A stretch of 64,000 nt of DNA, taken from the NCBI GenBank assembly GCA_963835085.1, contig CAWIED010000004.1:72508-136507 (forward strand), read 5' to 3'. The translations under genes and the position numbers were made by a program. The notes below the pieces were generated by a model. The model was not told the DNA's origin, made no database searches, and saw nothing but the letters and a program-made list of their open reading frames with translations. This document shows, one piece after another, positions 6,111 through 29,679 of the stretch (position 1 is the first letter of the stretch; every line of letters starts with the position of its first letter). This DNA comes from an uncultured Actinomycetota bacterium (GTDB lineage: Bacteria > Actinomycetota > Actinomycetes > Actinomycetales > CAWJMD01).

Positions 6111-6580
6111 CGATCCCGCCCGCCGATGTCCGCATCCGGCGCCCCCAAGAGCATGAACGGCTCATGAAGGAACTTCAGGACGCGGAAGGTGGCTTTGGTA
6201 CCTTCCGCGACATTCTGTTGCTGTCTGCCGCCGTCGGGTACCGGTTCGAGCGCAGGGTGGCCTTCACCAAGACGGCCGGGGATCCGATCCGCTACGAGAC
6301 CTTAACAGGGCCGGCTTTCGGAGAAACGCTGGTCAACATGATGGCTGCGAACGTCGCAGAGGATGATCCGGAGATCATGGATGCGAATCGGATCGAGGAG
6401 CGGATCACGATCTTCGAGGAGTACGCCAATGGAGGGCTGGAGTACATCCAGGAGCAAGTCAACGTGCGCCATCAACCTCCGGCGCTCGTAGTCGGTGACC
6501 TAGTCTCTGAGGCGCTCGGCGATAGCAGAGGCGCCACTCGCGCCTCAGTCGACGAACTGCTTGGCGGTGTGAGTTGGTAA
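6107..6580 (+). CDS. 157-aa protein, probably the 'DNA phosphorothioation-associated protein 4' type family (assignment from memory, not verified)
   Basis: ORF translationally coupled to the ATPase gene (GTGA overlap at 6107). Last gene of the operon; ends 16 bp from the convergent dndA stop. Confidence 0.55.
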   Translation: MTIPPADVRIRRPQEHERLMKELQDAEGGFGTFRDILLLSAAVGYRFERRVAFTKTAGDPIRYETLTGPAFGETLVNMMAANVAEDDPEIMDANRIEERITIFEEYANGGLEYIQEQVNVRHQPPALVVGDLVSEALGDSRGATRASVDELLGGVSW

Positions 6581-6596
6581 CCGGAAGTGGCTGATG

Positions 6597-7790: not shown

Positions 7791-7879
7791 GTTTGGAAGC
7801 CTAGCCGCTGTACGGATCGTTGTTTGGATTGTTCGCATGGAGTGTTTGGAAGTGGATCCAAACATGGTAGGACTGGAGT
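7791..7879. promoter_or_regulatory. Divergent dndA/dndB intergenic region with repeated GTTTGGA boxes (candidate operator/promoter)
   Basis: GTTTGGA at 7791, 7822 and 7844, plus the inverted copy TCCAAAC at 7857. Together 7844-7863 forms the palindrome GTTTGGAAGTGGATCCAAAC. The 89-bp region is more AT-rich than its flanks. Confidence 0.35.
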
Positions 7880-12539: not shown

Positions 12540-12541
12540 CC

Positions 12542-12940
12542 ATGCCCATCGAACACATACGTCTTAGCCGACAGGCACGTGACCAGCTCATTACGCTGAA
12601 ACGACGCACCGGCATCCAGCACTGGAACGTCCTGTGCCGCTGGGCACTATGCCGCTCACTCGCCGAACCCGCACCACCACCAGCAACCAAGCTCACACTC
12701 GACAGCAACGTCGAAATGAACTGGCGGACATTCAGCGGCGAACTCGGCGACGCCCTCTGGGCACTCCTCCAGATGCGCTGCCACAACGACGGTCTGACAC
12801 TCGACGAAGAGACCCTAGCGCATCAGTTCAAGCTTCACCTCCACCGAGGCATCGGATACCTCGTTGGCGACCCACGAGTCACCGACGTCGTTGGACTCGC
12901 CAGCGTCGGACTCCAAGAGCCTGACGCACCCGCCGCATGA
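12542..12940 (+). CDS. dndE: DndE
   Basis: MPIEHIRLSRQARDQLITLKRRTGIQHWNVLCRWALCRSL matches the characteristic DndE N-terminus. Starts 2 nt after the dndD stop. Confidence 0.85.
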   Translation: MPIEHIRLSRQARDQLITLKRRTGIQHWNVLCRWALCRSLAEPAPPPATKLTLDSNVEMNWRTFSGELGDALWALLQMRCHNDGLTLDEETLAHQFKLHLHRGIGYLVGDPRVTDVVGLASVGLQEPDAPAA

Positions 12941-14424: not shown

Positions 14425-14610
14425 CGCAGCGTTAGCCAGTGGTCCTCCGAATCGCTCGCGCGAGGACTTGGACGCATCGCCGCGGGCGTGGAAGATGAGT
14501 CCCTTCTCCGGTCAGCCTATCGGCATGCCAGCCCGATCTCGACCGATTCAATTCGCCATCCCGAGATCGGTCTTTCGGGGACCACCGCTAACGCGGCGCG
14601 TCGTGGAGGC

Positions 14611-15453
14611 TCAGACCGTGCCGAGGGTCAGCTTGAACTTGTCAAGGGTCCAGGTCTCGAAGGGCAAGCCCAACAGTGCCGCGACCTCAGCCACCAGAAT
14701 CGGGTGAGCCACGCCACCGGAGCTCCAGTCATCCTTCACATCTTCGGTGATGAGGACCGCAGAGGAAAACGACGCGCCGCTCTCCTTCGCCTCCGACAGC
14801 CCTAGTAGAAAGTCAGCCCACACGAAGAAGTCACCGTCGCCGGGATCCTTGAAGCCGGGCGGGGTCCTGGTGCTATTGCGCACGCGCGCGAGGCGGGCGA
14901 ATCTGCTCCGGGGTACATAAGTGACCCGAGCTCGCGCGTCCAGCATCTCCCACAGATCCGTGAATCGCTCGACGGTCTTTGGGTCGTAGAGGTAGCCGTA
15001 CTGAGCCTCGACATCTCTCAGGAGCTCCCCGAAGCGCTCTTGCAACTCCTCGGCAAAATTTGCCTTAGAAAGCTCCTTCGCCAAGCTATCGTACTTCTTC
15101 TGGACCGCTTTGGAGACTGTGTCAATAACGGGGACCGTGTTATTCCAGAACTCTTGGACCACCTGTCCGGGTACAACCAGTGGTGCTTCGTGGGATGTTT
15201 CAAGGTAGTCGCGTAGGTCCGTCGTCTTCGGATCGGCTCTAGCCATCCGCAACACGATGTTCGTGTCGAGGCCGAACGCCGTCTTGGAAATGTCGGAAAT
15301 TCCTTCGGCGCCCGAGCTGCGCCGCGACAGCGAGGTCTTAAGCGCGCTAAGCGACTGGAGTGGGTCGGCGCGATCAAGAACACGCTCGACCCTGTCGACG
15401 AGCTGGTCGGTTACGCGGCGCCCTGCTTCGGCGCTGGGCTCAGTACCAGACAT
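14611..15453 (-). CDS. PIN-like domain protein (DUF4935-like)
   Basis: FGLDTNIVLRM (N-terminal acidic PIN motif) and C-terminal PPGFKDPGDGDFFVWADFLL...AVLITEDVKDDW. Start set at the ATG at 15453; it overlaps the upstream gene's end by 43 nt. Confidence 0.6.
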   Translation of the reverse strand: MSGTEPSAEAGRRVTDQLVDRVERVLDRADPLQSLSALKTSLSRRSSGAEGISDISKTAFGLDTNIVLRMARADPKTTDLRDYLETSHEAPLVVPGQVVQEFWNNTVPVIDTVSKAVQKKYDSLAKELSKANFAEELQERFGELLRDVEAQYGYLYDPKTVERFTDLWEMLDARARVTYVPRSRFARLARVRNSTRTPPGFKDPGDGDFFVWADFLLGLSEAKESGASFSSAVLITEDVKDDWSSGGVAHPILVAEVAALLGLPFETWTLDKFKLTLGTV

Positions 15454-17057
15454 TCGCGCAAGCCTCTGCGGCCGACGGAGCCGACGGTGGCCACCGTATG
15501 AGTGTTCCAATCATCGAACTCAGCCAATCGTTTCGCCCATTCGCCTTTGACGCCTGTGTGTAGCAGCACCGCCTTCACGCCTTCCCAACTTGTTGCGTCT
15601 CGGGGGCGCCGATATGAGGTGCTGAGAAAGGCGTTGCCGATCGTCGACCCCCAGTAGGTGACGTCATCCTCGTCGAACCCTGCCCATCTAGTGGCGCTTC
15701 GCGGGCGTACGAGGTGCAGGAATCCGATCACCTCAGGGGTCAACGAACCCTGCACGAGGGATCGTCGGAGGAACTGTAGGGTGCTCTTGTTGAACGAGCG
15801 CTTCCTGAGCTGCTCGATGAAATCGTCCCGAGTAGCGTCCAGTGGCGCCAGCTCGGCAGTAGCTCGCGCCCAGTCTCTGGTATTCGTTATGAGGCTGGCA
15901 GCTTCACTGAAGCGGCGCTCGGCACCGCTGGTCCCTAGGTTTCCGACAACTGTACGCCGCGCGACGACCTTCAGCACGTGGAGCATCGCGTCGTCAGAGT
16001 CATCCATGGTTGATGCCGCCATCAAGAGGGGGCGGACCGCCGCGACATTGAGCTCGTTGAGCGACTCGAAAATTCGCAGCTGCGACGGCGTGGCCGGACC
16101 ATCGACAGTCGGATCGATCATTTGGAGGTAGATCGGGAGCCACTGTTCAAGTCGTTCTAGCAACTCTCCAACGGCCGGCGCCTGGGTCGCACCGCGCCGT
16201 TGCGCAAGGTAGTCGTACAAGTCCTTCGGCAAGATATAGCCGGAGCCCATGCTTACCACATGACGAATGAACTGCACGAAATTGTTCGCCGGGGAAGTTC
16301 CAAACTGTGTGGCTAGTTGTGACCAGCGCCGGTAATGCGATGCACGCAATTTGGGAGCCGTTTGGCTAAGGAGATAGTTCTTGAGCAGGTCGGCAGTCGT
16401 GAGCTCTCGGCCGCGGGTGTTAATAACCTCGAATACCCGGTACGCGGCACCGGGGTTGGGGTGCACAAAAACCGCAAAGTAGAGCCTATCGGTAAGGAAC
16501 TGGGTCCAAAGGCTCAACCTCCGGAAGGGATCTTCGCTTAGGTGCTCCCGAACCTTGTTACAAAGAAACGTGTACGACTCGAGAAGTCGCTCGGATATGG
16601 TCCCATCGTCGCCGCCGGCGGCGTCCGCCGTGAAGGGTTCATCCGAATTAATGATGCGCTGTAAGGTGGCGTTGTCGGTGACATCGCTGAGAGCGATCCT
16701 TTCTACGTACTCGTCAGAGTCGTAGTCGAGCACCTTGAGGAATGTCGACTCAATTTGGTCTGCCAGGCCACGACGACGGTGTTTTATGGCTTCGTGGCGT
16801 AGAGCGGCAGCCAGAAGTGTGATCGTCAGGAGACGCTGTTGGCCATCGACCACCTGCATGCGGTCTTCACTAGCAGTCAGGATCACCAGGCCGAGGAAGT
16901 ACGACTCGTCGTTGAGGCTGCTGCGGAGGTCGTTCCAAAACTCAATGTACTCGTCCTTCAACCAGGCGTACTCGCGCTGGAAGTCAGGAACCAAGAAGCG
17001 CTCGGTTGAGATCAGGGCGCCCGCCGTCGTCGCGGATGCTGTCAGCTGGCTCTGCAC
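15411..17057 (-). CDS. DUF262 (ParB-like NTPase) / DUF1524-like (His-Me finger) protein, GmrSD-family type IV restriction-like
   Basis: FLVPDFQREYAW and VVDGQQRLLTITLL (DUF262 signatures). C-terminal FLHLVRP...STIGNAFLS resembles a degenerate DUF1524 H..P / N motif. Visibly lower GC than the core genes. Confidence 0.78.
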   Translation of the reverse strand: MQSQLTASATTAGALISTERFLVPDFQREYAWLKDEYIEFWNDLRSSLNDESYFLGLVILTASEDRMQVVDGQQRLLTITLLAAALRHEAIKHRRRGLADQIESTFLKVLDYDSDEYVERIALSDVTDNATLQRIINSDEPFTADAAGGDDGTISERLLESYTFLCNKVREHLSEDPFRRLSLWTQFLTDRLYFAVFVHPNPGAAYRVFEVINTRGRELTTADLLKNYLLSQTAPKLRASHYRRWSQLATQFGTSPANNFVQFIRHVVSMGSGYILPKDLYDYLAQRRGATQAPAVGELLERLEQWLPIYLQMIDPTVDGPATPSQLRIFESLNELNVAAVRPLLMAASTMDDSDDAMLHVLKVVARRTVVGNLGTSGAERRFSEAASLITNTRDWARATAELAPLDATRDDFIEQLRKRSFNKSTLQFLRRSLVQGSLTPEVIGFLHLVRPRSATRWAGFDEDDVTYWGSTIGNAFLSTSYRRPRDATSWEGVKAVLLHTGVKGEWAKRLAEFDDWNTHTVATVGSVGRRGLRECLVLSPAPKQGAA

Positions 17058-17627
17058 GGATGTTCTCCCTCACCGCGATCTTCGCTGCATCCGGAACGTT
17101 ATCTCAGCGGGCTCTTCTTGCACTTACTGCATCATCGTGAAGTCTGCCGTAGCGGCCTGCGGAGCCTACTCCGAGTACGTTCAGACCTCCTGGATCGGGA
17201 GGACAGAGAGGTTTGACGTCATCGACGGCGTCCACGCCCACCCTGAAGGGCTCTCAACCGAGAGCCGCAAACCCGGTATGGGGGCGCGCCAGAGCACCCG
17301 GGTCGCTTCAGCTTGTGAACCCTGACCGGACCGGGCGGCGCCTGCGCCTGCTGCCGTAAGTGCCCTCGTGGTGGGTGGTCCTCGTGCTCGATCGGGGTGA
17401 TCATCTCGAGCTGCCCAGGACGGTCGTTTATCCTGGCATTCTGCGACGATGCGTGGTCAGAGTTGGACGTCTCAGCCGAGTTGAGGCGACGTGGCCGCTG
17501 ATGCGTGCGATCGCTCGCAGTCTTGCGGGCCCGTTCGAGGTAGTGGTTTCGGCTCATTCACGGTTCAGTCGGCGTCGAATAGACCATCGTCGCAGGTCGG
17601 CGAGTCGGCGGGGACGCTCTGTAAATC

Positions 17628-17727
17628 CGTCGGCTTAGCCTACGTTGGTTCGAATCCAACAGCTGCTACCAGCAGGAAACGAGGCCCTGACCAGCGGAAA
17701 CGCCGGTCAGGGCCTCGATCTATGTGT
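17628..17727 (+). repeat. Direct repeat copy 1: tRNA 3'-fragment (variable-arm-like hairpin, T-arm GTTGGTTCGAATCCAAC, acceptor strand AGCTGCT-A-CCA) plus a GC-rich GAAA-loop hairpin; att-like
   Basis: By manual alignment it matches 27225-27323 with 3 substitutions and 1 single-nt indel. No 5' acceptor strand or anticodon arm could be found upstream. Confidence 0.7.
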
Positions 17728-18043
17728 CCGGGCGGTGTCGGTGGGAAGCGGCCGTCTACGGGTGTCTGCGGATGAGGGGTGGATGAGTTTTGGGGTTTGC
17801 ATCGCCGCTCCGCTTGCTCCCGAACCGTGTGGCACGGCACCGATGCTGCCGCTGTGTCGCTCAATGGCCTAAGCGTCGAGGGTGCCCGACGGCCTCGGTG
17901 CGGTCCAAGGTCAAGCCAATGATCGCCTCGTCGTAGTTGCACGGAACCGCGCGGTGGTGAATGGCCTGAGTGGCCTTACGCACCTGTCGTGCCGCCGCAG
18001 CCTAGGGCGCACCTGGCTCGCGCAGCCGGCCTCGTGAGCCTCA

Positions 18044-18622
18044 TCAGCCGCTCCATCCCTCTCGCAGAGCGGTGGGCGTCCAGGCTGGCCAGCTCGCAGA
18101 GCCGATGAGCGCGCCGTGCTCGAACGAGGCGCAGAGGCGGAACGGGGCGCGCGCGCTGCTGTTGTCGAGCACCTCCGCCACGTCTGCGATCCGGATCGCT
18201 TCGCCGATGTGATCCCATAGGCGCTCATAGCGGTCGCGGATCTTCTGCTTCGGAACGGCATGGCCGCCGCGGCGCACTCGCTCAAGGACGCGCTGCACGG
18301 TGAGCTCGACAGGAACGATGATCACGTGCAGGTGCACGAGGTATCCGGCGTCGGCGGCGTCGGCGACGAGTTGGACCTTGCTCGGGTGCGAGAACACCGT
18401 CTCGGAGATGAACGACGCACCCTCGGCAATCCGGCCCCGACGCTGGGCCTCAGCGATCCGCGCCGCCTCGTAGGCGTGCTCGGCCTGAGCGTCGGGCCAC
18501 CGTTCGGCGGCGATCTCGTCGGCGTTGATGAATGGCAGGCCGGTCGCCGGCGTCAGGACGTCGTGCACGTAGCTCGACTTCCCCGCACCGTTTGGGCCAG
18601 CAAGAAGGTGCAGCAGTGGCAT
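18044..18622 (-). CDS. Zeta-toxin-like P-loop kinase/ATPase (COG4185-like) toxin
   Basis: MPLLHLLAGPNGAGKSSY (Walker A). 192 aa. Start overlaps the stop of the upstream small gene (TGATG). Confidence 0.7.
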   Translation of the reverse strand: MPLLHLLAGPNGAGKSSYVHDVLTPATGLPFINADEIAAERWPDAQAEHAYEAARIAEAQRRGRIAEGASFISETVFSHPSKVQLVADAADAGYLVHLHVIIVPVELTVQRVLERVRRGGHAVPKQKIRDRYERLWDHIGEAIRIADVAEVLDNSSARAPFRLCASFEHGALIGSASWPAWTPTALREGWSG

Positions 18623-18981
18623 CAGCCGCGAGCCGGGTGGACGATCAGGTTGCCGTCCTCGTCGGCCTCGGAGTACGACTCACCGCCGGCCGCGAACCGC
18701 GCCGCGTAGTCCAGCCCGTCCCGTAGCTCCGTCATGCGAGCGGCCCATTCCTCGCGGATGATGGCCTGCTCCCGCTCACCGAGCGAGTCGTAGGACCCCG
18801 TGCCGGTGAGGACCCTGACGATCTGCCGGTGGTTCACCCGCGGCGACATCTCCAGCTCGCGCCCGATACGCGCCCAGTGCGCGATCTGCTGCGGCACCGT
18901 CCGGGATGTGACGCGCGCCGCTGCGAGGGCGGACTCATACACGTCCGCGGGGAGCCGGGTCGGCTGGCTTGCCCTGGTCAT
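18622..18981 (-). CDS. ParD-like antitoxin (119 aa)
   Basis: Start at the ATG at 18981 (MTRASQPTRLPADVYESALAAARVTSRTVPQQIAHWARIGRELE...). Translationally coupled to the toxin gene. The longer ORF extension is R/P-rich and unlikely to be real. Confidence 0.55.
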   Translation of the reverse strand: MTRASQPTRLPADVYESALAAARVTSRTVPQQIAHWARIGRELEMSPRVNHRQIVRVLTGTGSYDSLGEREQAIIREEWAARMTELRDGLDYAARFAAGGESYSEADEDGNLIVHPARG

Positions 18982-19073
18982 GCAACCAGTGTAGCGCCGT
19001 GCTACCCGATTGCTGCGACGCGCAGCTCGTCGACGAGGCTTGCCAGGACGCACCGGCCGAGGAGCGCGCGGAC

Positions 19074-19441
19074 ATGCTGCCCGCCCTCGAGGACGCCCTA
19101 CAGGCCCTCTGCAACGCGGGGGAGCAGTGGCACCAGGCACACGCGCCCCCAGGTCAGGACGCAAGCTCGGCCGAGCTGCGCGCCTACCAGGACGTGATCG
19201 AGGCCCAGGCCGAGCAGGAGGCCGCCGCGGAGGAGAGCTTGCGCCGCCGCTATGCCGAGGCGTTCGCGGTCTATGCCGAGCGGTTCACCGCCGCCGTCCT
19301 CGACGCGGCCACGGCTCTTGCCGGGCTCACGGTGCCGGTCGAGGTGCGGGCTGAGGTCGATCCAGCCGCGCCGTGGTGGGACGTCGAGCGCGGGACACCA
19401 TCAACCCGCAGGAGTGGGACGAGGACGACGAGCTCGCGTGA
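19074..19441 (+). pseudogene. Hypothetical protein, apparently missing 1 nt at the G-run 19392-19394
   Basis: High-GC3 ORF MLPALEDALQAL...AAPWWDVERG continues in another frame as DTINPQEWDEDDELA-stop with near-perfect GC3. No recognisable family. Confidence 0.3.
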
Positions 19442-19796
19442 CGACTGTGGGCAGCAGCTCAACAGCGGGGCGGCCTGCCCACATTCGACGAGACCCCCAC
19501 CCCAGGAGTGAGCATGTCCGGGACGTCCAGGAGGGCAGTCGGGACGTTCGAATGGTCAGACCCGCGGGTGCAGGAGTTCACGCCGGGGGGAACGCGAGAG
19601 GAGCAGAGTGTGACGTACGTCGGCGAGATGGGAAGAGATGGAGTTTGGGGCAACGGTCACGTCTGCTCGGCTCAGCTGCAGACTTCGGCGCACCTGGCAG
19701 CCACGCGACGGCCGGTCCTGCGCATACTGCGGGCGCATGAGGGTGAAGCGTAGGTCGTACATCAACGGCGAGGCCGTCGAATGCGTCGATCGTGGC

Positions 19797-19934
19797 TCAT
19801 GCGACCTCGTCGTCGAGGCCGGCATCTTCGAGTTCGACGATTGACCAGGGCGGGCGTTCTCGGCGTTCCAGTCGCTGCTCGGCCGTGGCCCACCGTTGTT
19901 CGTCGCCATAGATCAGTACGAGGAAACGCGGCAT
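19797..19934 (-). pseudogene. YciI/YCII-like protein, N-terminal fragment only (45 aa)
   Basis: MPRFLVLIYGDEQRW is the typical YCII-family N-terminus, but the ORF stops after 45 aa where about 110 aa would be expected. Confidence 0.4.
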
Positions 19935-19944
19935 GGCAGGCCTT

Positions 19945-20949
19945 TCAGGTGGTCGTGATGGGTTGGGCGATCTCCCACTTATGGCCGGCGGGGTCCTCGA
20001 AGCAGGCGGTGCGCACACCCCACTCGCGGTTGCAGGGTCCGTTGAGCAGCTGTACGCCGCGGCTGCTCAGTACGGCACAAACCGCATCGACGTCGGACAC
20101 GGTGATCGTGAGCTGGACTCGACTGCGGTCCTCGGGACCTCCCGGCTGAGCGGGCGCGATCAGACTGCCGGCATGGCGGACGTCCAGGAGATTGATCAAT
20201 GTCAACCCAATCCGAAAGACAGTCGAGGCGTCGTCGTGATACGCCGGCTTCTCGTCGAAGGCCTGCCGGTAGAAGGCGGTAGACGCCGCGAGGTCATCGC
20301 AGAACAGCGTGATGGCCGACAGGCTCCTCGCCCAGCTGGGATTCCCGCTCACGGCGTGACCCGCGCCGGCACTGGCGTCGGAAGCCAGCGCCGCCCTCCT
20401 CGTTCGTTCTGCTTGCCAGTCGTCGGCGAGAAGGGCCCACACCTGTGTGTCGTAGTGAACGCCCTCGACTGGCCAGCTCTGGCGCAGCACTCCTTCCAAT
20501 GTCATGTTCAGTTGCTGGGCGACTCGCGAGCTGCGGGTGTTGTCGGCTCGGCAGCGCCACTCGGCCCGGTGCATGCCACGGACGTCGAAGGCCCACTCCA
20601 GTAGGCGACGGCATGCTTGGACGACAAGCCCGTTGCCTTCGGCCGCCGGTTCGAGCCAGCAGCCCAGTTCGCACCCGCCGGTCGCTGGGTCGAAGTGCGC
20701 GAACATCACCCCGCCGCATAGACGCCCGTGGCGCCAGATCCCGTACAGCCGGGGGCGGTCTGCCGCCGCGGCAGTGGCGTAGCGCTGCAGGGTGGTGCGC
20801 GCTTGGTCGAGCGTGTCGGTGACGAACGCCGGTCCCACCCAGGGCCTGATGTGCTCGCGGGCGCGATCCATGTGCGCGGCGAACTCTGCTGCGTGCCATA
20901 CCTCCAACGGGCCCAGCCGGGCATCCGCTGACAGGTCGATCGCGAACAT
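19945..20949 (-). CDS. GNAT N-acetyltransferase (RimJ/RimL-like) fused to a C-terminal VOC/glyoxalase domain
   Basis: N-terminal half LEVWHAAEFAAHMDRAREHIRPWVG...GCELGCWLEPAAEGNGL. C-terminal half LSAITLFCDDLAASTAFYRQAF...FEDPAGHKWEIAQ. Start at the ATG at 20949. Confidence 0.75.
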   Translation of the reverse strand: MFAIDLSADARLGPLEVWHAAEFAAHMDRAREHIRPWVGPAFVTDTLDQARTTLQRYATAAAADRPRLYGIWRHGRLCGGVMFAHFDPATGGCELGCWLEPAAEGNGLVVQACRRLLEWAFDVRGMHRAEWRCRADNTRSSRVAQQLNMTLEGVLRQSWPVEGVHYDTQVWALLADDWQAERTRRAALASDASAGAGHAVSGNPSWARSLSAITLFCDDLAASTAFYRQAFDEKPAYHDDASTVFRIGLTLINLLDVRHAGSLIAPAQPGGPEDRSRVQLTITVSDVDAVCAVLSSRGVQLLNGPCNREWGVRTACFEDPAGHKWEIAQPITTT

Positions 20950-20963
20950 GACGCCAGCCTCCG

Positions 20964-20989
20964 ATTCACACAACAACCGTTGCGTGAAT
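20964..20989. promoter_or_regulatory. Palindromic candidate TetR operator in the divergent GNAT/TetR intergenic region
   Basis: ATTCACACAAC-aacc-GTTGCGTGAAT (10 of 11 positions pair), located between start codons at 20949 (minus) and 21002 (plus). Confidence 0.4.
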
Positions 20990-21001
20990 ATTGTAGCGAG
21001 C

Positions 21002-21604
21002 GTGCCGCGACCACGAGGTGATCATGACGCGCGCCGGGGCGAGGTTGCTCGCGCGGTATTGCGTGTTCTAGCTGTGCGAGGGTTCCTAGGGCTGACCATG
21101 CGTGCCGTGGCTGCTGAGCTGGGTGCGAGCACGGGTGTGGTCACGCACTATTTCGCGTCCAAGCGTGAACTCCAGATGTTCGCGCTGGACCTCCTGGCGC
21201 GCAGTGTGGAGGAACGCCAGCGACCCACTGCGGCGCCGGGCATGGCGACCGTGCGCACGCTGCTGCTCGGCATACTGCCCATCAACGCCGAGGCCGCGAC
21301 CGCGAACCGCATCTGGATCTCATCCTGGGACGTCGTACTCGCCGAGCCACAGCTGGCCGCCGCCCACGCGAAAACCTATGCCGACAGTCGCGCCCGGCTC
21401 GAAGACGCCATTCGCGCCGCCCAGGACGACGGCGACCTGATCGCCGCCGACCCGGCCGATCTCGCCGCCACGCTGCACGCCTTCACACTCGGCCTCACCA
21501 TCCAGGCAGTCCTGGACCCCGACGCATTTCCGCCCGATCGCCAGACCGCGCTCACCGACGCCTACCTGACCGGCCTCACCCCGGCCCGTCGGCCGGCTGA
21601 CTGA
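21002..21604 (+). CDS. TetR-family transcriptional regulator
   Basis: HTH LTMRAVAAELGASTGVVTHYFASKRELQ. GTG start at 21002. Divergent from the GNAT-VOC gene. Confidence 0.8.
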   Translation: MPRPRGDHDARRGEVARAVLRVLAVRGFLGLTMRAVAAELGASTGVVTHYFASKRELQMFALDLLARSVEERQRPTAAPGMATVRTLLLGILPINAEAATANRIWISSWDVVLAEPQLAAAHAKTYADSRARLEDAIRAAQDDGDLIAADPADLAATLHAFTLGLTIQAVLDPDAFPPDRQTALTDAYLTGLTPARRPAD

Positions 21605-21645
21605 TCTTCGATCACCACGAGCCAGGAGAGCCAACCTCGCGAATC

Positions 21646-22082
21646 GTGCTGTACAGCCTGATGTCGCTCGACGGCGCCCTCGATGACCCGCACCGGTATT
21701 TCCCGGAGACTGGAAGGGGGACAGGCGCACCCGTTGTCGACCAGCAGTTCGCCGCCGCCAAGAGCGTGCTGCTCGCGGTGGTGATCGCCCGACAGGTAAG
21801 GCGGCCGGGACAACCTTCGTGATCATCGGCGCCAGCACTAGCCCGGCACTCAGGTAACTCAAAGTCTGTCGAGAGAACACTCAGAGATTCCTTGCAGAGA
21901 CTGGGGAGTTCCAGGTCTCCCGTTCGCGCTACCTGAGAGGACCCAGCTGTGACCACCACCTCGGGGGGCTGATGAGCCTGACCGGGCCATGGGCGCTGTC
22001 CAAGGACACCGCCGCACCCGGCCAGCCACTGGCCTACGAAGCATCTCCCAAAGACCTGTTCCCGGACGTGCGCGACGGCTGA
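21646..22082 (+). pseudogene. Degraded RibD_C / dihydrofolate-reductase-family gene (internal deletion and frameshifts)
   Basis: N-terminus (R)IVLYSLMSLDGALDDPHRYFPE. A later frame reads KAAGTTFVIIGASTSPAL, like the PGxDIxVxGS region. C-terminal ...PLAYEASPKDLFPDVRDG-stop at 22080-22082. Too short and multi-frame. Confidence 0.4.
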
Positions 22083-22212
22083 ACTCCCCTCTCAGCCGTA
22101 TCCCCCGAGCACGTCGACGGGGAGCATGGGCAAGGGGCCGACCTCTCGGTGAGGTCGGCCCCTTCGTCGTGCTCGTCGAGCTGGGGTTCACATAGCAGCG
22201 GAGCGGATCTGG
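22033..22212 (+). repeat. Inverted repeat, left copy (about 180 bp; contains the gene 3' end plus a perfect 14-bp-stem hairpin at 22132-22164)
   Basis: The reverse complement of 26934-27111 matches with one substitution and one 2-nt indel by manual alignment. Confidence 0.8.
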
Positions 22213-22244
22213 GCGTGGGGGCGGCCGCGGCCTGAGGAGGGCGC

Positions 22245-23117
22245 TTATGCGCCGCCGGCGGTGACGATGGCGTCGGTGATGAATCCGGCGAGGATGCCGA
22301 GCAGCAGACCGTAGGCGACCAAGTCGGGGCGTTTGGCGCGGGCGGCGACGCCGAGCAGTTGGGCGATGACGTAGACGATCGATCCGGCGGCGAGGGTGAG
22401 GAACACGACACTGACCGGTTCGGAGGTGAAGTTGTGCCCGACGGCGGTGCCGATGAAGGTTGGTCCGCCGGCGATGGCGGCCATCGCCAGCAGGAATCTC
22501 CAGGTGGGTCGGGTGTCCACGCCGTCGAGGTCCTTGTCGGCGGCCAACGGGGCGACGATGCCGAACCCTTCGGTGGCGTTGTGCAACGCGAATCCGATGA
22601 CCAGCACGGTGGCCAGGGCGATGGCGTTGCTGGCGGCGGCCTGCCCGATGGCCAGGCCTTCGGCGAAGTTGTGCAGCCCGATGCCGACCGCGATGAGCAG
22701 CGACAGCCGGCGCGCGGGTGACCAGGTGGCCGGGCCGCGGGTGTGCGCGAACCGTTCGGTGGCCGCCATCGTGCCCGGGCCACGGCTGCCGCGGTTGCGC
22801 GTGGCGCGGGCCAGGTAGCGGTCGTAGGCCACCAAGCCGAGGAGACCGACAGCCAAGCCGCCGGCGAACAGGCTGCCGTAGCCGAACACCGGGGCCAGAC
22901 CGCCGCTGCCGTCGTGCACCGCGCCGAGTCCGGTGTCGATCGGTTCCCACGCCGCGGCCAGGACGTCCCAGAACAAGAACATCAGGATGCCGACGGCGGT
23001 GGCGTTCAGGAAGACCCGCAGCCCGGGTGCGGGCTGGCGCATCCGGCCGACGGGCAGCCCGAACAGGATAGTGACGCCGGCGATGAAGCCGAGCAGCAAA
23101 GTCGTCATCAGGCTCAT
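22245..23117 (-). CDS. zupT: ZIP-family divalent metal transporter (ZupT-like)
   Basis: 290-aa polytopic membrane protein with GLHNFAEGLAIG and ALHNATEGFGI motifs. Confidence 0.85.
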   Translation of the reverse strand: MSLMTTLLLGFIAGVTILFGLPVGRMRQPAPGLRVFLNATAVGILMFLFWDVLAAAWEPIDTGLGAVHDGSGGLAPVFGYGSLFAGGLAVGLLGLVAYDRYLARATRNRGSRGPGTMAATERFAHTRGPATWSPARRLSLLIAVGIGLHNFAEGLAIGQAAASNAIALATVLVIGFALHNATEGFGIVAPLAADKDLDGVDTRPTWRFLLAMAAIAGGPTFIGTAVGHNFTSEPVSVVFLTLAAGSIVYVIAQLLGVAARAKRPDLVAYGLLLGILAGFITDAIVTAGGA

Positions 23118-23324
23118 GCCGACACCCTGCCACAGGCAGGTTAGGCATGCCTAACAGGCGGCTGGTCTGCTGCTGAGTTCGCGGAACCATGCTCACCGTT
23201 TCTCTCGGACCTCACCGACACACGTCCCGGGCAACCCGATCACCGAGTAGCGCCATCCCGCGTACCGTGGAGACCCTCCACCGGGCCGCCGCGGCAAAGG
23301 GGAGCCGACTTATGAAGGGCCACC

Positions 23325-23894
23325 ATGCAACTCGATGACCTCCTCCAGGCGCTCAACGCCGGCCAGACCATCGTCGGGGATTCACCGCTGCACCGAGTCA
23401 TGCATCGAGTCAGCCAAGAGGCCCTACGCATCACCGGCGAGCTCAATGGCGGGTACCGCGAGCCGGCGCGGGTGCGGGAACTGCTGGGCCAGCTGATCGG
23501 TACGCCCGTCGACGATTCGGTGACGGTATTCCCCCCGTTCTATTCCGACTTCGGGAAGAACATCACCCTCGGAAAGAGGATCTTCATCAACTCCGGATGC
23601 AGGTTCCAGGACCAGGGTGGTGTGGTCATCGGCGACGACTGCCTCATTGGGCACAACACGGTCTTAGCCACGCTCAACCACGACCTCGACCCGTCCCGCC
23701 GCGCGGACCTGCACCCAGCGCCGATCGTCATCGGCCGCAACGTGTGGATCGGATCGAACGCGACCGTTCTGCCGGGCGTGACAATCGGCGACAACGCCGT
23801 CGTGGCAGCGGCCTCCGTTGTCACCAAGGACGTTCCGGAGAACACGGTCGTCGTGGGATCACCCGCCCGGGTGGTGCGCACCTTAACCACCTGA
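23325..23894 (+). CDS. Left-handed beta-helix (hexapeptide) O-acetyltransferase, Maa/LacA-like
   Basis: Hexapeptide repeats IGDDCLIGHNTVL and IGRNVWIGSNATVLPGVTIGDNAVVAAASVV. N-terminal Mac-like region. Confidence 0.8.
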   Translation: MQLDDLLQALNAGQTIVGDSPLHRVMHRVSQEALRITGELNGGYREPARVRELLGQLIGTPVDDSVTVFPPFYSDFGKNITLGKRIFINSGCRFQDQGGVVIGDDCLIGHNTVLATLNHDLDPSRRADLHPAPIVIGRNVWIGSNATVLPGVTIGDNAVVAAASVVTKDVPENTVVVGSPARVVRTLTT

Positions 23895-23918
23895 ACCGAC
23901 AAGCTGCTGGCCCGTTTA

Positions 23919-24026
23919 TTACGTTTCCGATGTGTCATACCTTGCAGAGTTACTCCCAGTCATAACACTGCCCAATGCGACCACGCCAGCGATGGTCACG
24001 CCAGCTAGACTCCTCTTGATGCTCAT
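23919..24026 (-). CDS. 35-aa ORF with a signal-peptide-like N-terminus (speculative)
   Basis: MSIKRSLAGVTIAGVVALGSVMTGSNSARYDTSET. GGAAGGA lies 8 nt upstream of the ATG. Sits at the 3' side of the low-GC structured region. Confidence 0.3.
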   Translation of the reverse strand: MSIKRSLAGVTIAGVVALGSVMTGSNSARYDTSET

Positions 24027-24460
24027 AACGCCAATCCTTCCGTCGCGTCCCTAAAGGCTTGTATATGGTCCTTCGTCATCCGTCTTGGCTTTCGAGTCAA
24101 GGAACCTTCCAATCACGGAGATGATGCAGTGCCGTGTTACATACCGTCGCTGTGATCGGCGCACCGCTCTGTCCATTGAGTCCTGGCTATTGTTCAGTAC
24201 AATAGTTTTCGACAGGACCGGCTGAGCTGGTGGCATACCCGTCGGGTTACCTTCTTTTGCTTCCAGCTTGACAGGCAATTCACTACCTATCAGTTCATGG
24301 AGGATACGCACACTCAGGTGCGCTGAGGAACCTCTCCGATATACCCCTTTCGAGGACCTGATCTCAGGCATCCCTCAGGCCATGGGTCTTCGTCTCCGAT
24401 ACCACGGGCGTGGTGGGTGCCGATGTGCCTCGGGGGCACCGGTCCTTCGGGGTGTGACCA
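24027..24460 (-). promoter_or_regulatory. Low-GC, hairpin-rich about 430-nt region (candidate structured leader or ncRNA; unclassified)
   Basis: Marked GC drop relative to flanks. Hairpins on the minus-strand transcript include CTATTGT-actga-ACAATAG, CCTGA-ga-TCAGG, GGTGCC-13nt-GGCACC and CTGAGG...CCTCAG. The only ORF here (24051..24371) has atypical codon usage. Confidence 0.25.
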
Positions 24461-24971
24461 CCTCAGGAATCGAGCGCCGGGTGTGTCAGATTAACGGTGG
24501 ATCTGGCCCGGCTCATTTCAGTTGGTTCGGCCTTCGAAGGTGATGGCGAAGGCGTTGAGTGCGGGGCTTCCACTTCCTCACCCAGCGTGCCCGGCCGCGA
24601 GGCTGGGATTGGATTCACCGCGTTGTCGAACGGGTTCGCCACCTGTGACGACCCGGCCGGGTTGCAGACGATCTGTGAGGAGAGTCTTGTGGCTCGACCT
24701 GGGCGAAGTAGGTACCGAGTTGCCGAGCCCACTCCACGTGCCAGAGTTCCCACCGTGCTCAAAACGTGTAACGGCTCATGCTGCTCTTCGTGGCGTGCCG
24801 TTGGTTGGGGGTAGTGGCGAGGATGACTACCACGGCGCTGGTGGTGGACACTGTTGCGATGGCACACGCCCGAAGAGCGTATCGAGCGCCGGGTGAGGTG
24901 GGCCACCGAGTCCTTGGACGTTGCGTCGGCCGTCCACGCTTCAGCTTGAGCTGTAGGACCGTGGTCTGGGC

Positions 24972-25454
24972 GTGCGCCGGATGACGCCTCGAGTATTCGC
25001 GTCTGGAACCGATTCGGCCACTGAGTTGCGTCGCGTGCGGGACCTTATGGATCGCGAGTTCACCGATGAGGGATTGAATCTGGATCGCGTTGCTGCTGCG
25101 GCGTTCATGTCGAAGTCGCACTTCGTGCGTCGCTTCGCACAGCAGTTTGGCACGACGCCGGCGGCGTATCTCAGCCAGCGGCGGATCGAACGGGCCCAGG
25201 ACTTGTTGCGCTTCGCCAACCTGACGGTGACCGACGTCTGCCACGCGGTGGGGTTCAGGTCACTCGGGTCGTTTTCGTCGGTGTTCACCGAGCGGGTCGG
25301 AGTTACGCCGTCTGAGTTTCAGCGACGCTGGCGTGGCCAAGACCCGCCGCGCGTTCCCGGGTGCGTGATCCTGATGTGGGGACCGCAGCGTTGCTCCGCC
25401 GTCGGAACTGAGCAATCTGGGAGAAGCGCGGGCGGCGGCGGAGACTTACGGTGA
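24972..25454 (+). CDS. AraC-family HTH transcriptional regulator (short form)
   Basis: SKSHFVRRFAQQFGTTPAAYLSQRRIERAQDLLRFANLTVTDVCHAVGFRSLGSFSSVF. Followed 4 nt later by a VOC gene. Confidence 0.8.
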   Translation: MRRMTPRVFASGTDSATELRRVRDLMDREFTDEGLNLDRVAAAAFMSKSHFVRRFAQQFGTTPAAYLSQRRIERAQDLLRFANLTVTDVCHAVGFRSLGSFSSVFTERVGVTPSEFQRRWRGQDPPRVPGCVILMWGPQRCSAVGTEQSGRSAGGGGDLR

Positions 25455-25458
25455 CGAC

Positions 25459-25887
25459 GTGATTACCAACGTGGCTATTGTCAATGTCTTCGTGCAGGAT
25501 CAACAGGAGGCGCTCGAGTTCTACACGCAGGTTCTGGGGTTCGAAGTCCGTGACGACGTGACCCTCGATGGCGGGTTCCGATGGTGCACCGTGGGTCATC
25601 CGAATCAGCCCGAACTGCTGCTCAGCCTTATCGAGTTCGGGCCCCCACTGCCGCGCGATCTAGTCGACAAGCTCAACCTGGCGCAGCGCTCCGGGGGCTG
25701 GCGCGGCCTTGGGTTCAACGTCGACGATTGTCGCCACACGCACCGCGAGCTGGTCGCCAAGGGCGTGGAGTTCGTGCAGGAACCGCAGCAACGCCCGTAC
25801 GGGACGGAGGCGGTTTGCCGGGACAACTCAGGCAACTGGATCGTCCTCATCGAACTCCCCGGGCACGGCACGCGAGGGCGTCGATGA
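25459..25887 (+). CDS. VOC/glyoxalase-family protein
   Basis: MITNVAIVNVFVQDQQEALEFYTQVLGFEV...YGTEAVCRDNSGNWIVLIE. Confidence 0.8.
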   Translation: MITNVAIVNVFVQDQQEALEFYTQVLGFEVRDDVTLDGGFRWCTVGHPNQPELLLSLIEFGPPLPRDLVDKLNLAQRSGGWRGLGFNVDDCRHTHRELVAKGVEFVQEPQQRPYGTEAVCRDNSGNWIVLIELPGHGTRGRR

Positions 25888-26315
25888 CCACGTCGCCCAT
25901 GCCTTCCGCGATCCGATCGGTGGCCAACCTCGTTATCCCGATCGCCGGGTCTTCGCTGGATCGAAGTCGCGCCGATTGGTGCTCACACCACAATCGCTCT
26001 GGCCACGTCTCGCGGTGGCATGTGGGGGACCGCCGGAGGCGAGACAACGTCAATCTGTTCTGTGAGGACGTCGCCGGCGAACACGCGCGTTTGTGCGACT
26101 GTGGGATCGATGTCGACCCGCAGATGCTGGAGATACCGGGCGCGCCGCCCATGTTCCGGTTCGTGTCCCGTTCGGGAACATCCTTCAAGTCGTCCAGATC
26201 GGAGGGAAATCCCGGCGACGGAGGCCCGAGCGCATGACGCGCGCAGCGATGAGGGTGGCCGCACACCGCCCCGGTCGTGGGACGTCAACCCGAGAACGAG
26301 CAGATGGGAGTTGTC

Positions 26316-26705
26316 ATGGACATGAAACTAGAGCTGATTCCGGTACCCGTGGAAGATGTTGACCGGGCCAAGGCGTTCTACACGAAACTAGGCTTCCACG
26401 TCGACGTCGACGTTCAACTTGGCGAGGGGGTACGCGTCGTACAGCTGACGCCTCCAGGCTCGAGCTGCTCGATCGGTATGGGTACCGGCCTGGGTGCCTA
26501 CGAAGGCGAGCCCGGGTCCATTCGAGCGCTTCATCTAGTCGTCGCCGACATCGAGAAGAGCCGAGCCGAGTTGATCGCGCTCGGCGTTGATGTAGGCGAC
26601 GTGATGGACCACGGAGGAGGGGTCAAGAGCGCCGGCTTCGCCGACCCGGATGGCAACACTCTCCAGTTGCAGGAGATGGCGTGGCGAACGGGAGACGCCT
26701 TCTAG
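26316..26705 (+). CDS. VOC/glyoxalase-family protein
   Basis: MDMKLELIPVPVEDVDRAKAFYTKLGFHVDVD...FADPDGNTLQLQE. ATG at 26316 with GGGAG upstream. Confidence 0.8.
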   Translation: MDMKLELIPVPVEDVDRAKAFYTKLGFHVDVDVQLGEGVRVVQLTPPGSSCSIGMGTGLGAYEGEPGSIRALHLVVADIEKSRAELIALGVDVGDVMDHGGGVKSAGFADPDGNTLQLQEMAWRTGDAF

Positions 26706-26745
26706 CGGCCGACGTTGTCAGGCAGGTGTCGTCGATGCCCCTGGG

Positions 26746-26915
26746 TGAACGAACCAGATGACGAGCCAGATCAGTGGATGGTCGACTCGCTGTCTGAGGT
26801 CTCGGTGCACGCGACGGGCTCGAACACCTATCGATCGATGGTGGACTACTGGCCCGAGTCGAATGAGGTGGTCGCGGAGCCTATGAGACCGGTCCGGCGT
26901 CTACTCCTGTTCGCC
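26746..26915 (+). pseudogene. RibD_C/DHFR-family internal fragment
   Basis: ...EVSVHATGSNTYRSMVDYWPESNEVVAEPM... resembles the LLLGRxTYExxxxYWP...FAxxMN core that is missing from the degraded copy at 21646-22082. It abuts the right inverted repeat. Confidence 0.35.
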
Positions 26916-26933
26916 TTCCTCCTGCGGCAGGGA

Positions 26934-27111
26934 CCAGATCCGCTCCGCTGCTATGAACCCCAGCTCGACGAGCACGACGAAGGGGCCGACCTCACCGAGA
27001 GGTCGGCCCCTTGCCCATGCTCCCCGTCGACGTGTTCGGGGGATACGGCTGAGAGGGGAGTTCAGCCGTCGCGCACGTCCGGGAACAGGTCTTTGGGAGA
27101 TGCTTCGTAGG
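26934..27111 (-). repeat. Inverted repeat, right copy (hairpin at 26980-27012)
   Basis: Reverse complement of 22033-22212 (one substitution, one 2-nt indel). Confidence 0.8.
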
Positions 27112-27224
27112 TGGTCAGACATGATCACCCAAGTCAGCTTGGACTGTGGCCAGCTGAGCCACTGCCTCACGGGTATGCGGAAAGGTCCTCGCGCTCAGTA
27201 AGCCGAACTGGCGGTCTGTAGGTT

Positions 27225-27323
27225 CGTCGGCTTGGCCTACGTTGGTTCGAATCCAACAGCTGCTACCAGCAGGAACCGAGGCCCTGACCGGCGGAAACGC
27301 GGTCAGGGCCTCGATCTATGTGT
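27225..27323 (+). repeat. Direct repeat copy 2: tRNA 3'-fragment plus hairpin (att-like)
   Basis: Same sequence as 17628-17727: T-arm GTTGGTTCGAATCCAAC, AGCTGCTACCA, then GGCCCTGACCGGCG-gaaa-CGCGGTCAGGGCC. Confidence 0.7.
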
Positions 27324-28085: not shown

Positions 28086-29267
28086 CTACGAACGCACCAT
28101 CATGGCGTCTCGAACGCTGAAGGTGGCTCCCTCGAGGTCTGCGGCGTCGGTGACGAAGGTGAAGGCATCGTCGTGCACCGTGGCGCCGGGCTGCACCGGG
28201 CCGGTGCTCACGGAGTCCGAGTCGACCTCTTGCCCGCTCTTGGTGGCGATGACCGTGAGCAAGAACGAGGCCGGGAATGATGACTTGTTCGTGAGCGTGA
28301 CCGGAACCTTGGTGTCGGGGAAGCTGGAGTCACCGGTGATGACGGGCGTGCCGAAGGTGACCGTCAAGTCGTTGGCCATGATGCTGTCGACATCGGTGGT
28401 CAGCCCCGAGTCGTTGGAGACGGAGGGCCTCGACTCGCGTGAGGTGGACGGCATTGCGTCCGATGTGGAGATCCAGTAGACGGTGCCGACGAACACCACA
28501 ATCGAGACGATGATGGCCAGCGCCGAGGTGGCGATGCCGCCGATTGCCAGACCCCGACCGGCCGCAAGGCCCTTTCTGATCTGAACCAACGCGACGATGC
28601 CCATGATGAGGCCGACCAGGGCGATGAAGGCGAAGACCAGGCCGATGATGGGGATCCAGCCGAGCATCAGCCCCACGACGCCGAGCACCAGACTCAGGAT
28701 CGCCAGCACCTTGCTCGGCCCGGCAGGTGTGTACATGCCGTACGCCTGAGGGTTGGTGTACATGGCCGATTGGGCGCCAGGCTGCTGGTAGTTGGCGTCG
28801 GGTGGTTGGTAGCCGGCCTGCGGATTGCCGGCCGGGCCGTAGCCGGCTTGCTGATATTCCGGCTGCTGGAAACCCGGCGGTGGGTATCCCGGTTGCTGGA
28901 AGCCTGATGGCCCGTAACCCGGCTGCTCGTAGGTCGGCTGCTCGTAGGTCGGTGGTCCGAAGCCTGGCTGCTCGTAAGTCGGTTGCCCGTACCCGGGCTG
29001 TCCGTACCCGGGTTGCCCAAAGCCGGGTTGCCCAAAGCCGGGTTGCCCGGACCCGGGTTGCCCAAAGCCGGGTTGCCCAAAGCCGGGTTGCGCGAAGCCC
29101 GGTTGCCCGGAGCCGGGCTGCTGATCTGCAGGCCGGTACGTCTCGGGCTCGGTGTAGCCCGGCCCCGGAGCCTGCTGCTGAGGGCCACCTGCTGCGAACG
29201 GGTTCGGATCGCCGTCGGGGGAGTTGTGCTTGGTCAGATCGGGGCGCTGCGGCGTGGAGTCGCTCAT
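28086..29267 (-). CDS. Membrane protein with a Pro/Gln/Gly-rich repeat N-terminal region, two or more TM helices and a DUF4352-like extracytoplasmic domain
   Basis: Start at the ATG at 29267 (MSDSTPQRPDL...) with GGGAAAG upstream. Repeats QPGFGQPGFGQPGSGQPG... TM region VLAILSLVLGVVGLMLGWIPIIGLVFAFIALVGLIMGIVALV. Confidence 0.8.
   Translation of the reverse strand: MSDSTPQRPDLTKHNSPDGDPNPFAAGGPQQQAPGPGYTEPETYRPADQQPGSGQPGFAQPGFGQPGFGQPGSGQPGFGQPGFGQPGYGQPGYGQPTYEQPGFGPPTYEQPTYEQPGYGPSGFQQPGYPPPGFQQPEYQQAGYGPAGNPQAGYQPPDANYQQPGAQSAMYTNPQAYGMYTPAGPSKVLAILSLVLGVVGLMLGWIPIIGLVFAFIALVGLIMGIVALVQIRKGLAAGRGLAIGGIATSALAIIVSIVVFVGTVYWISTSDAMPSTSRESRPSVSNDSGLTTDVDSIMANDLTVTFGTPVITGDSSFPDTKVPVTLTNKSSFPASFLLTVIATKSGQEVDSDSVSTGPVQPGATVHDDAFTFVTDAADLEGATFSVRDAMMVRS
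28981..29115. repeat. 15-bp tandem repeat (9 units) encoding the (Q/E)PG(F/Y/S)G pentapeptide array
   Basis: Units GGTTGCCCAAAGCCG and variants run head to tail from 28981 to 29115. Confidence 0.8.
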
Positions 29268-29494
29268 CTGCTTTCCCTTCGCGATGGTCGTCCGGCGACC
29301 AGCACGGCCACCCACCGGCTCGGCCCTCACATGTATGCCATCAGCAGGGTATCCGTTCGGTGCAGGTTCAGCTCGATGCAAGGCTCAGAGCCCGCCACGA
29401 CGCCCGTTGGGGTGAACGACATCGCCGGCTGCGACCCCATCCAGAGATCGGTTGGGAAACAGGGGCCAAGGCCGTGTACGCTACTGGACGCACC

Positions 29495-29570
29495 GCCCCG
29501 ATAGCTCAGTCGGCAGAGCGTCTCCATGGTAAGGAGAAGGTCTAGGGTTCGATTCCCTATCGGGGCTCCA
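29495..29570 (+). tRNA. tRNA-Thr (anticodon GGT), CCA encoded
   Basis: Manual cloverleaf: GCCCCGA/TCGGGGC acceptor, GCTC/GAGC D-stem, TCTCC-ATGGTAA-GGAGA anticodon arm, TAGGG-TTCGATT-CCCTA T-arm. Confidence 0.92.
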
Positions 29571-29603
29571 CTGGCCCGGTCAGCTTTGACGACCGGGCCA
29601 CTA

Positions 29604-29679
29604 GGCGGGATAGCTCAGTCGGTAGAGCAAACGGCTCATAATCGTTGTGTCGCGGGTTCGAGTCCCGCTCCCGCTACCA
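29604..29679 (+). tRNA. tRNA-Met (anticodon CAT; elongator-type by acceptor stem), CCA encoded
   Basis: GGCGGGA/TCCCGCT acceptor, AACGG-CTCATAA-TCGTT anticodon arm, GCGGG-TTCGAGT-CCCGC T-arm. A lysidine-modified tRNA-Ile2 cannot be excluded from sequence alone. Confidence 0.88.

Follow-up and report, generated by a model that had tools for sequence, protein, structure and literature searches.

The stretch of DNA analysed here (the window) comprises 64,000 nucleotides (nt) from an uncultured Actinomycetota bacterium (GenBank assembly GCA_963835085.1, contig CAWIED010000004.1, positions 72,508 to 136,507 of the forward strand). It contains two direct repeats, copy L (110 nt) and copy R (109 nt), each of which combines the 3' half of a tRNA-Tyr gene with a GC-rich hairpin. 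A DNA-phosphorothioation defence island of the Dnd-Pbe type (island A) occupies the window up to copy L, a 9.5-kb block of accessory genes (block B) lies between the two copies, and the conserved chromosome follows further to the right. The coordinates of these features are collected in Table 1.

Pairwise alignment of the two copies gave sharp edges on both sides. They differ at seven positions, namely by six substitutions (17624, 17625, 17627, 17637, 17679 and 17693) and a single-base indel (17703), and the longest exact run that they have in common is ~41 nt. The first-pass annotation of this DNA had described near-identical repeats at 17628-17727 and 27225-27323 with three substitutions and one indel. 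Within those coordinates the count is exact, but the repeat does not begin in the variable arm, as had been stated; its true start lies ~10 nt further left, in the anticodon loop CTGTAAA. All parts listed in that annotation were present in the copies: the T-arm GTTGG-TTCGAAT-CCAAC, the 7-nt acceptor strand AGCTGCT, the discriminator A, CCA and, 3' of CCA, the GC-rich hairpin with a GAAA loop. The predicted folding energies of this hairpin were -37.6 and -36.7 kcal/mol in copies L and R, respectively (z = -7.6 and -5.9). A 28-nt core spanning the T-arm, acceptor strand and CCA (GTTGGTTCGAATCCAACAGCTGCTACCA) occurs exactly twice in the window and was found in none of 100 dinucleotide-preserving shuffles, with up to three mismatches permitted. 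Matches of the hairpin to Rfam families (sar and miRNA families) remained far under the gathering scores, and were set aside as chance hairpin matches.

Because the repeat starts at an anticodon loop with the anticodon GTA, we identified the repeated gene as tRNA-Tyr. The copies were aligned with tRNA-Tyr genes from six other actinomycetes and from the two closest relatives (loci L089 and L091, described below). Both copies aligned to tRNA-Tyr(GUA) along the anticodon loop, the long variable arm, the T-arm, the acceptor strand, A73 and CCA, and the repeat continues for ~56 nt past the end of the tRNA, hairpin included. ARAGORN and Rfam called no tRNA at either copy and no tRNA-Tyr anywhere within the window; the tRNAs that they did recognise were tRNA-Thr (29495), tRNA-Met (29604) and tRNA-Trp (38248). 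At relaxed thresholds copies L and R reached 16.8 and 15.5 bits with the tRNA model, compared with a gathering score of 29, and only their 3' part was covered. The DNA upstream of each copy had no significant likeness to a tRNA 5' half (fractions of shuffles reaching the observed score of 0.51 and 0.98), and the copies are therefore clean cuts at the same nucleotide. The alignment to one gene and the lack of any tRNA call thus bear out the earlier view of both copies as displaced 3' fragments, with neither a 5' acceptor strand nor an anticodon arm upstream.

In its tRNA part, copy L equals the functional tRNA-Tyr of L089 and L091 (3' half CTGTAAATCCGTCGGCTTAGCCTACGTTGGTTCGAATCCAACAGCTGCCACCA) except that C72 is replaced by T. 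Beyond this shared T72, the tRNA part of copy R has four changes that copy L lacks, three of them in the anticodon loop and stem. Position 72 (17670 and 27267 of the window) is thus a T in both fragments, while in the functional tRNA-Tyr of the relatives C72 pairs with G1. Either the tRNA-Tyr of this lineage has a G1-U72 pair, or the elements brought the base in. A similar hairpin, with GCGGAAACGC at its centre, is located 3' of tRNA-Tyr in Nonomuraea, Kitasatospora and some Streptomyces, and the hairpin of the repeats can therefore be regarded as a common type of tRNA-Tyr terminator.

The two closest retrievable relatives, picked by protein search, were L089 (GCA_963851635.1; MurB 76% identical) and L091 (GCA_016850845.1; MurB 74% identical). 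Both carry the empty site that the first-pass annotation led one to expect in related genomes. The order of their genes is yajQ (-), intact tRNA-Tyr, DUF4190 (-), tRNA-Thr, tRNA-Met, rpmG, hadAB and murB, with the tRNA-Tyr directly before the DUF4190 gene. The DUF4190 protein of the window shares 40-43% amino-acid identity with those of L089 (gene at 4640-6448) and L091 (4799-5824). Apart from the tRNA fragments, the content of positions 1-27323 of the window was absent from the matching loci of these two relatives. In 80 further loci, fetched via MurB, the order tRNA-Thr, tRNA-Met, rpmG, hadAB, murB and tRNA-Trp was broadly conserved, and in many actinomycetes a tRNA-Tyr was found 0.1-5.5 kb upstream of tRNA-Thr. 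None of these 80 loci contained a counterpart of the candidate genes of 14611-27806, a range that takes in the whole of block B together with the last part of island A and the spacer to the right of copy R.

Since the intact tRNA-Tyr of the relatives sits between yajQ and the DUF4190 gene, we place the return to conserved chromosome to the right of copy R. The earlier suggestion that the chromosome resumes after 27323 holds from the DUF4190 gene onward; the first ~760 bp are unassigned. This spacer (27324-28085) contains only a small acidic open reading frame of 54 amino acids (27600-27764), and may be left over from an insertion that is older still. On the other side of the insertions, a yajQ homologue is absent from the window; one that is 84% identical to that of a relative was found on a contig of 206,666 bp, a length equal to that of the contig with the window proteins that were tested. 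This fits a position of yajQ and the intact tRNA beyond the left edge of the window, at least 29 kb from tRNA-Thr, compared with ~2-2.5 kb in the relatives. Exact scans with att sequence gave no match, for a 43-mer in the genome contigs and for a 28-mer in the viral and metagenome contig collections.

Block B carries a zeta toxin with a ParD-like antitoxin, acyltransferase and glyoxalase-like genes, regulators and a putative transporter, all recognised by Pfam (Table 1). None of the 115 stop-to-stop frames of at least 55 amino acids in 17500-27420 contained a Pfam integrase, recombinase, transposase, replication or transfer domain. Likewise, tblastn with the integrase, DUF3631 and Prim-Pol proteins of the Nonomuraea element described below retrieved nothing in block B, and no integrase remnant. 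A second, decayed element lacking an integrase had been proposed between the copies, and both searches agree with it. With attachment (att) sites on both sides and neither integration nor transfer genes, block B has the structure by which a cis-mobilizable element (CIME) is defined. We infer its origin as a mobile element from the att copies at its ends, the accessory nature of its genes and the fact that the relatives lack it; its base composition gives no mark.

Block B also contains a near-perfect inverted repeat of ~179 bp (22035-22212 and 26934-27113), with one substitution and a 2-nt indel between its arms. It encloses 4.7 kb with the ZIP-like transporter, the hexapeptide acyltransferase, the AraC regulator and the two glyoxalase-like genes. 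Each arm holds a hairpin of its own (22122-22174 and 26970-27022), and the right arm stops ~100 bp before copy R. The enclosed DNA contains no transposase, a target duplication is not evident (TGG, 3 bp, at most), and a search of the plasmid collection returned no match to the repeat. The enclosed segment could be invertible or could once have been mobile.

Island A combines dndA-E with pbe restriction genes, and hence belongs to the Dnd-Pbe systems. Pfam recognised DndB, DndE and a class-V aminotransferase of the DndA type, whereas the putative DndC and DndD were named on the basis of weak or generic domain hits and of where they lie in the cluster. PADLOC identified PbeA (7e-249, with the intact Logan version as query) and PbeC (4e-264). 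In the window, pbeA is split into two overlapping frames. The gene is intact (711 amino acids) in the Logan assembly of ERR11523670, on a contig (L083) that is 99.97% identical to the window with one gap. The split is due either to strain variation, which would leave the Pbe restriction arm inactive, or to an erroneous indel in the source assembly. The Logan contig that carries pbeC begins at window position 351. The G+C content is 62.0% in island A and 66.5% in the chromosome on the right of copy R. According to Pfam, the main genes of 1-17600 contain no Phage_integrase or recombinase domain.

The nearest PbeA homologues (80-84% identical; loci L086 and L087) lie in the same Dnd-Pbe module, and neither a tRNA nor an integrase was found within 10 kb of them, a result that has no bearing on the left end of island A. 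In the window, the operon of dndBCDE and the methyltransferase gene (within 6597-14424) is co-directional with pbe and dndA is divergent, while the whole dnd block is inverted with respect to pbe in L086 and L087. Because of this difference in orientation, the Dnd-Pbe module must have been rearranged between islands.

Table 1. Features of the window (positions in the window unless another locus is named) and tRNA-Tyr fragments in other loci.
Feature	Position	Strand	Remark
att copy L	17618..17727	+	tRNA-Tyr 3' half 17618-17671 and terminator-type hairpin, stem ~17680-17717
att copy R	27215..27323	+	same segment as copy L
Island A, right-hand part	1..17617		DNA-phosphorothioation defence island
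Sigma70_r4-domain protein gene			island A; cut by window start
pbeA	1728-3865		PLD-helicase; frameshifted in window
pbeC	4056-6110		
dnd-associated gene	6107-6580		
dndA	6597-7928	-	
dndB, dndC, dndD, dndE	7880-12940		
Methyltransferase-like gene	12937-14424		
PIN-domain gene	14611-15510	-	
GmrSD-like gene	15411-17057	-	
Block B	17728..27214		9.5-kb accessory block
Zeta toxin	18044-18622	-	Pfam
ParD-like antitoxin	18622-19164	-	Pfam
GNAT-glyoxalase fusion	19945-20976	-	Pfam
TetR regulator	20792-21604	+	Pfam
ZIP-like transporter	22245-23117	-	Pfam
Hexapeptide acyltransferase	23325-23894	+	Pfam
AraC regulator	24972-25454	+	Pfam
Two glyoxalase/bleomycin-resistance-like genes	25459-25887, 26277-26705	+	Pfam
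DUF4190 membrane-protein gene	28086..29381	-	first gene right of copy R that is positionally conserved in relatives
tRNA-Thr(GGT) and tRNA-Met(CAT)	29495..29679	+	followed by rpmG, hadA, hadB, murB
Orphan tRNA-Tyr 3' halves	L042 3612; L049 3723; L056 4703; L058 5882; L064 868		

A similarity search with copy L matched the chromosome of Nonomuraea gerenzanensis (filed as a plasmid) at two places, over the whole 120 nt and with ~78% identity. A previously unannotated element of 21.4 kb is located there at a tRNA-Tyr, with 100-bp att repeats at its ends (NZ_LT559118.1, 1227225-1248795; locus L085). At one end, a tyrosine integrase gene lies 120 bp downstream of an intact tRNA-Tyr (226-308 of L085), on the other strand. 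At the far end, 21.4 kb downstream, a tRNA-Tyr fragment runs from CTGTAAA to just past the hairpin. The cargo consists of DUF3631, Prim-Pol, MrcB-like and GmrSD restriction genes, an HTH-M78 gene and an insertion sequence. This element resembles the window in the limits of its repeat, from CTGTAAA to just past the GAAA-loop hairpin, and in its defence cargo (GmrSD, MrcB-like). It differs in having its own intact tRNA, integrase, DUF3631 and Prim-Pol, and in being single rather than tandem. Except for a distant GmrSD match, its flanks and proteins had no significant similarity to the window. Homology of the flanks of the window copies to the Nonomuraea element or to the flanks of the relatives was likewise rejected, with scores at shuffle level.

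Orphan tRNA-Tyr 3' halves that start at CTGTAAA were also found in five Streptomyces and Kitasatospora loci, 2.5-7 kb upstream of tRNA-Thr and with no intact tRNA there (Table 1). They indicate that elements have integrated in these genomes at the type of site used by SLP1 of Streptomyces coelicolor. Among the five loci, only L058 retains a recognisable decayed D-arm upstream. Mycobacteriophages (Che9c, Dori, Sbash and others) carry a tRNA-Tyr segment annotated as 'tRNA pseudogene' directly beside their integrase gene. A decayed tRNA 5' half of this kind upstream of the repeats was rejected for the window copies, where the similarity was not significant; it was seen in the Streptomyces locus L058 only.

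Upstream of the repeat, at a distance of 25-33 nt, the motif AGGT[C/G] recurs in each of the eight fragment junctions, which represent five genera; six of them have it at 25-27 nt. In the window it is found at 17593-17597 and 27183-27187; the other junctions are those of L085, L042, L049, L056, L058 and L064. Its form is mostly CAGGTCA at 26-27 nt. The eight-junction pattern was reached by 0 of 20,000 shuffles, a figure that overstates the case because the motif was picked after seeing the data. The motif suggests that the left flanks of these junctions are element arms of one type. It may be a site in the element arm at which an integrase or accessory protein binds. An upstream arm that repeats the 3' arm of the hairpin was also considered, but was significant in none of the eight junctions.

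We consider it probable (about 0.85) that the repeats are att scars of two successive site-specific integrations at a single tRNA-Tyr gene (tyrT). The first-pass annotation had proposed tandem integration at one tRNA gene, and this is supported by the repeats, the empty site, the integrase-less block B, the parallel in Nonomuraea and precedents in actinomycetes (PMC2440964, PMC3218068). The att copies in the window are two displaced fragments in direct orientation. Copy L is the attR-type right junction of the Dnd-Pbe island and at the same time the left limit of block B, in line with the earlier description of the Dnd island as one integrated element ending at 17727. Copy R is the right junction of block B, at the place where the ancestral tRNA-Tyr 3' end is expected.

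In the mechanism that we propose, the attP of each element would contain ~110 bp, namely the tRNA from its anticodon loop onward and, after it, the terminator hairpin. A tyrosine integrase would recombine attP with the gene, presumably with a crossover near the anticodon loop. The new 3' half supplied by the element would keep the tRNA intact at the integrase end, while the old 3' half would end up, as a dead fragment, at the element's opposite end. Being the block farther from the tRNA, block B is placed as the first arrival, with copy R as its displaced fragment. The four additional changes of copy R in the tRNA part would be expected after such an earlier displacement. Block B would then have lost its integrase and any replication and transfer genes. 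By analogy with Nonomuraea and Che9c, its integrase would formerly have been located just to the right of copy L, in the place now taken by the zeta toxin and ParD genes. The Dnd-Pbe island would next have entered the rebuilt tRNA and pushed the 3' half supplied by block B to its present position as copy L. An intact tRNA-Tyr beside yajQ and the integrase of the defence island would accordingly be expected to the left of the window, with a 5' half of the tRNA that resembles GGCAGCTTGCCCGAGTGGCCAATGGGAGCGGA.

Several observations weigh against this interpretation. The window begins inside island A, so that the intact tRNA-Tyr and the integrase of the island are not seen. Both fragments have T72, as opposed to C72 in the relatives. 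The terminator hairpin of tRNA-Tyr in L089 and L091 is unlike that of the repeats; because of this difference, the hairpin may be either native to the host or borne by the elements. The G+C content of block B (65.9%) is chromosome-like, and block B contains no mobility gene or remnant of one. The relatives are distant, as their MurB identities illustrate, which puts the empty site at approximately the level of genus or family rather than between strains. Finally, the relatives have nothing that corresponds to the ~760-bp spacer to the right of copy R; 49-70 bp separate their DUF4190 gene from the tRNA.

Arrival of both blocks together is a variant that we consider unlikely. Island A and block B would have accreted in an earlier host and moved as a unit via their outer att sites, and copy L would be an inherited internal att. 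Transfer of tandems of a CIME and an integrative and conjugative element (ICE) has been documented (PMC5704250), and the two copies are almost alike in their tRNA parts, with the unusual T72 in common. However, the more advanced decay of copy R fits stepwise displacement in this chromosome, and the G+C contents of island A and block B differ, although neither point is decisive. A joint arrival is, moreover, a sub-case of the same accretion mechanism.

It is very unlikely that a local duplication or gene conversion made one of the copies, with block B being ancestral chromosome. The chromosome-like G+C content of block B and its lack of mobility genes would agree with such an origin. Yet the DUF4190 gene directly follows tRNA-Tyr in both closest relatives, and genes of block B were found in 0 of 82 syntenic loci. 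Furthermore, the start nucleotide of the copies and their end after the hairpin are the same limits as in the integrase-associated repeat of Nonomuraea and in the Streptomyces orphans, and the genes of block B are typical accessory cargo (toxin-antitoxin, acetyltransferases, glyoxalase/bleomycin-resistance-like genes).

A chimeric assembly is highly improbable. In that case, A-repeat-B-repeat would have been joined across the 110-bp repeats, and the real strains would each have one element at tRNA-Tyr. The source appears to be an environmental assembly, and the 14 mismatches in 8.4 kb between Logan contigs and the window, together with the pbeA frameshift, suggest strain variants or assembly errors. 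However, repeats with seven differences and exact runs of at most ~41 nt are short and separable for current assemblers, the Logan contig L002 (ERR11523670), which comes from a separate public assembly, is 100% identical to the window across the join between block B and copy L's right end, and no alternative junction was seen. The end of L002 lies 34 nt inside the repeat, but it was not used as a hint of a third copy, as other Logan contigs break at non-repeat positions. Independent decay of duplicate tRNA-Tyr genes to pseudogenes, with separate loss of their 5' halves, is extremely improbable. tRNA pseudogenes do exist and both copies have weak, sub-threshold matches to the tRNA model, but the two are cut at the same position without significant 5'-half similarity upstream, ~56 nt past the tRNA are repeated too, and the limits match those of integrase-associated att sites elsewhere.

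With two successive integrations at tRNA-Tyr as the preferred explanation, the scars delimit two accessory regions of this actinomycete precisely, and its Dnd-Pbe phosphorothioation system would have come on a tRNA-Tyr-targeted element. The tRNA-Tyr (SLP1-type) hotspot would extend beyond Streptomyces to Nonomuraea and this lineage, with att limits conserved to the nucleotide. Integration at tRNA genes and tandem accretion are textbook cases that raise no new question, and the present locus is a further example.

A more far-reaching scenario is doubtful: the array might still be active as a modular unit, with the integrase of the island recognising all three att copies, and the ~110-bp att and AGGT[C/G] might mark a single integrase lineage. 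If the array were active, the island alone, block B alone or both could excise, and the integrase-less cargo would ride with the defence island. If there were one integrase lineage, it would span several actinomycete orders, and its present load would mainly be defence genes (Dnd-Pbe, GmrSD, MrcB) in place of genes for conjugation.

The window contains several other repeats. A segment of ~330 bp is duplicated 14.9 kb apart (45863-46190 and 60726-61094, 87-95% identical), and one of its copies runs on into five tandem units of 73 nt (60976-61413). Tandem units of 103 nt are located at 62807-63056, and 15-nt coding repeats at 43001-43120.

Among known systems, the attP of the Che9c type extends, like the repeats, from the anticodon loop to the end of the acceptor strand, with 87% identity to 17619-17670 of the window. 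In contrast to the repeats, it is found in phage genomes, and the match stops at the end of the tRNA, without the hairpin. The att identity segment of SLP1 is reportedly 112 bp long, compared with ~110 bp in the window.

SLP1 is an actinomycete integrative and conjugative element (AICE) that targets tRNA-Tyr (PMC2440964, Table 1), the same gene as that of the window fragments. The neighbourhood is also alike, with tRNA-Tyr upstream of tRNA-Thr, tRNA-Met, rpmG, hadAB and murB, an arrangement shared by many Streptomyces loci. SLP1 has Int, Xis, Prim-Pol-type replication and a transfer protein. Block B and the visible part of island A yielded none of the AICE modules (Int, Xis, Prim-Pol/Rep, FtsK-like transfer); their cargo consists of genes for phage defence (Dnd-Pbe, GmrSD-like) and of small accessory genes. 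As Int, Xis, Rep and Tra genes were not found, we classify neither block as an AICE; only the type of att site is shared.

Tandem AICEs have been described at a tRNA-Arg of S. avermitilis, where AICESav3728 and AICESav3708 share a 44-bp att (PMC2440964), and at a tRNA-Lys of Frankia (Fean5518 and Fean5534; PMC3218068). Repeats that reach past the tRNA's 3' terminus are known from the same studies (PMC2440964, PMC3218068). As proposed for the window, these tandems reflect successive integrations at one tRNA with a shared att in between, and the order proposed for them has the tRNA-distal element as the first arrival, with restoration of the tRNA at each step. In contrast to the window, however, both AICEs keep their integrase and modules, whereas the distal block of the window has no integrase, its att is ~110 bp long and the proximal element is a defence island.

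Finally, CIMEs and site-specific accretion, by which integration and decay are followed by a new integration, have been described for the ICESt1 family of Streptococcus thermophilus (PMC5704250). The ICESt1 family belongs to another host phylum and uses another integrase family. Yet block B is alike in its architecture: it is flanked by att sites, lacks genes for integration and transfer, and forms a tandem with a second element at the target gene's 3' end.

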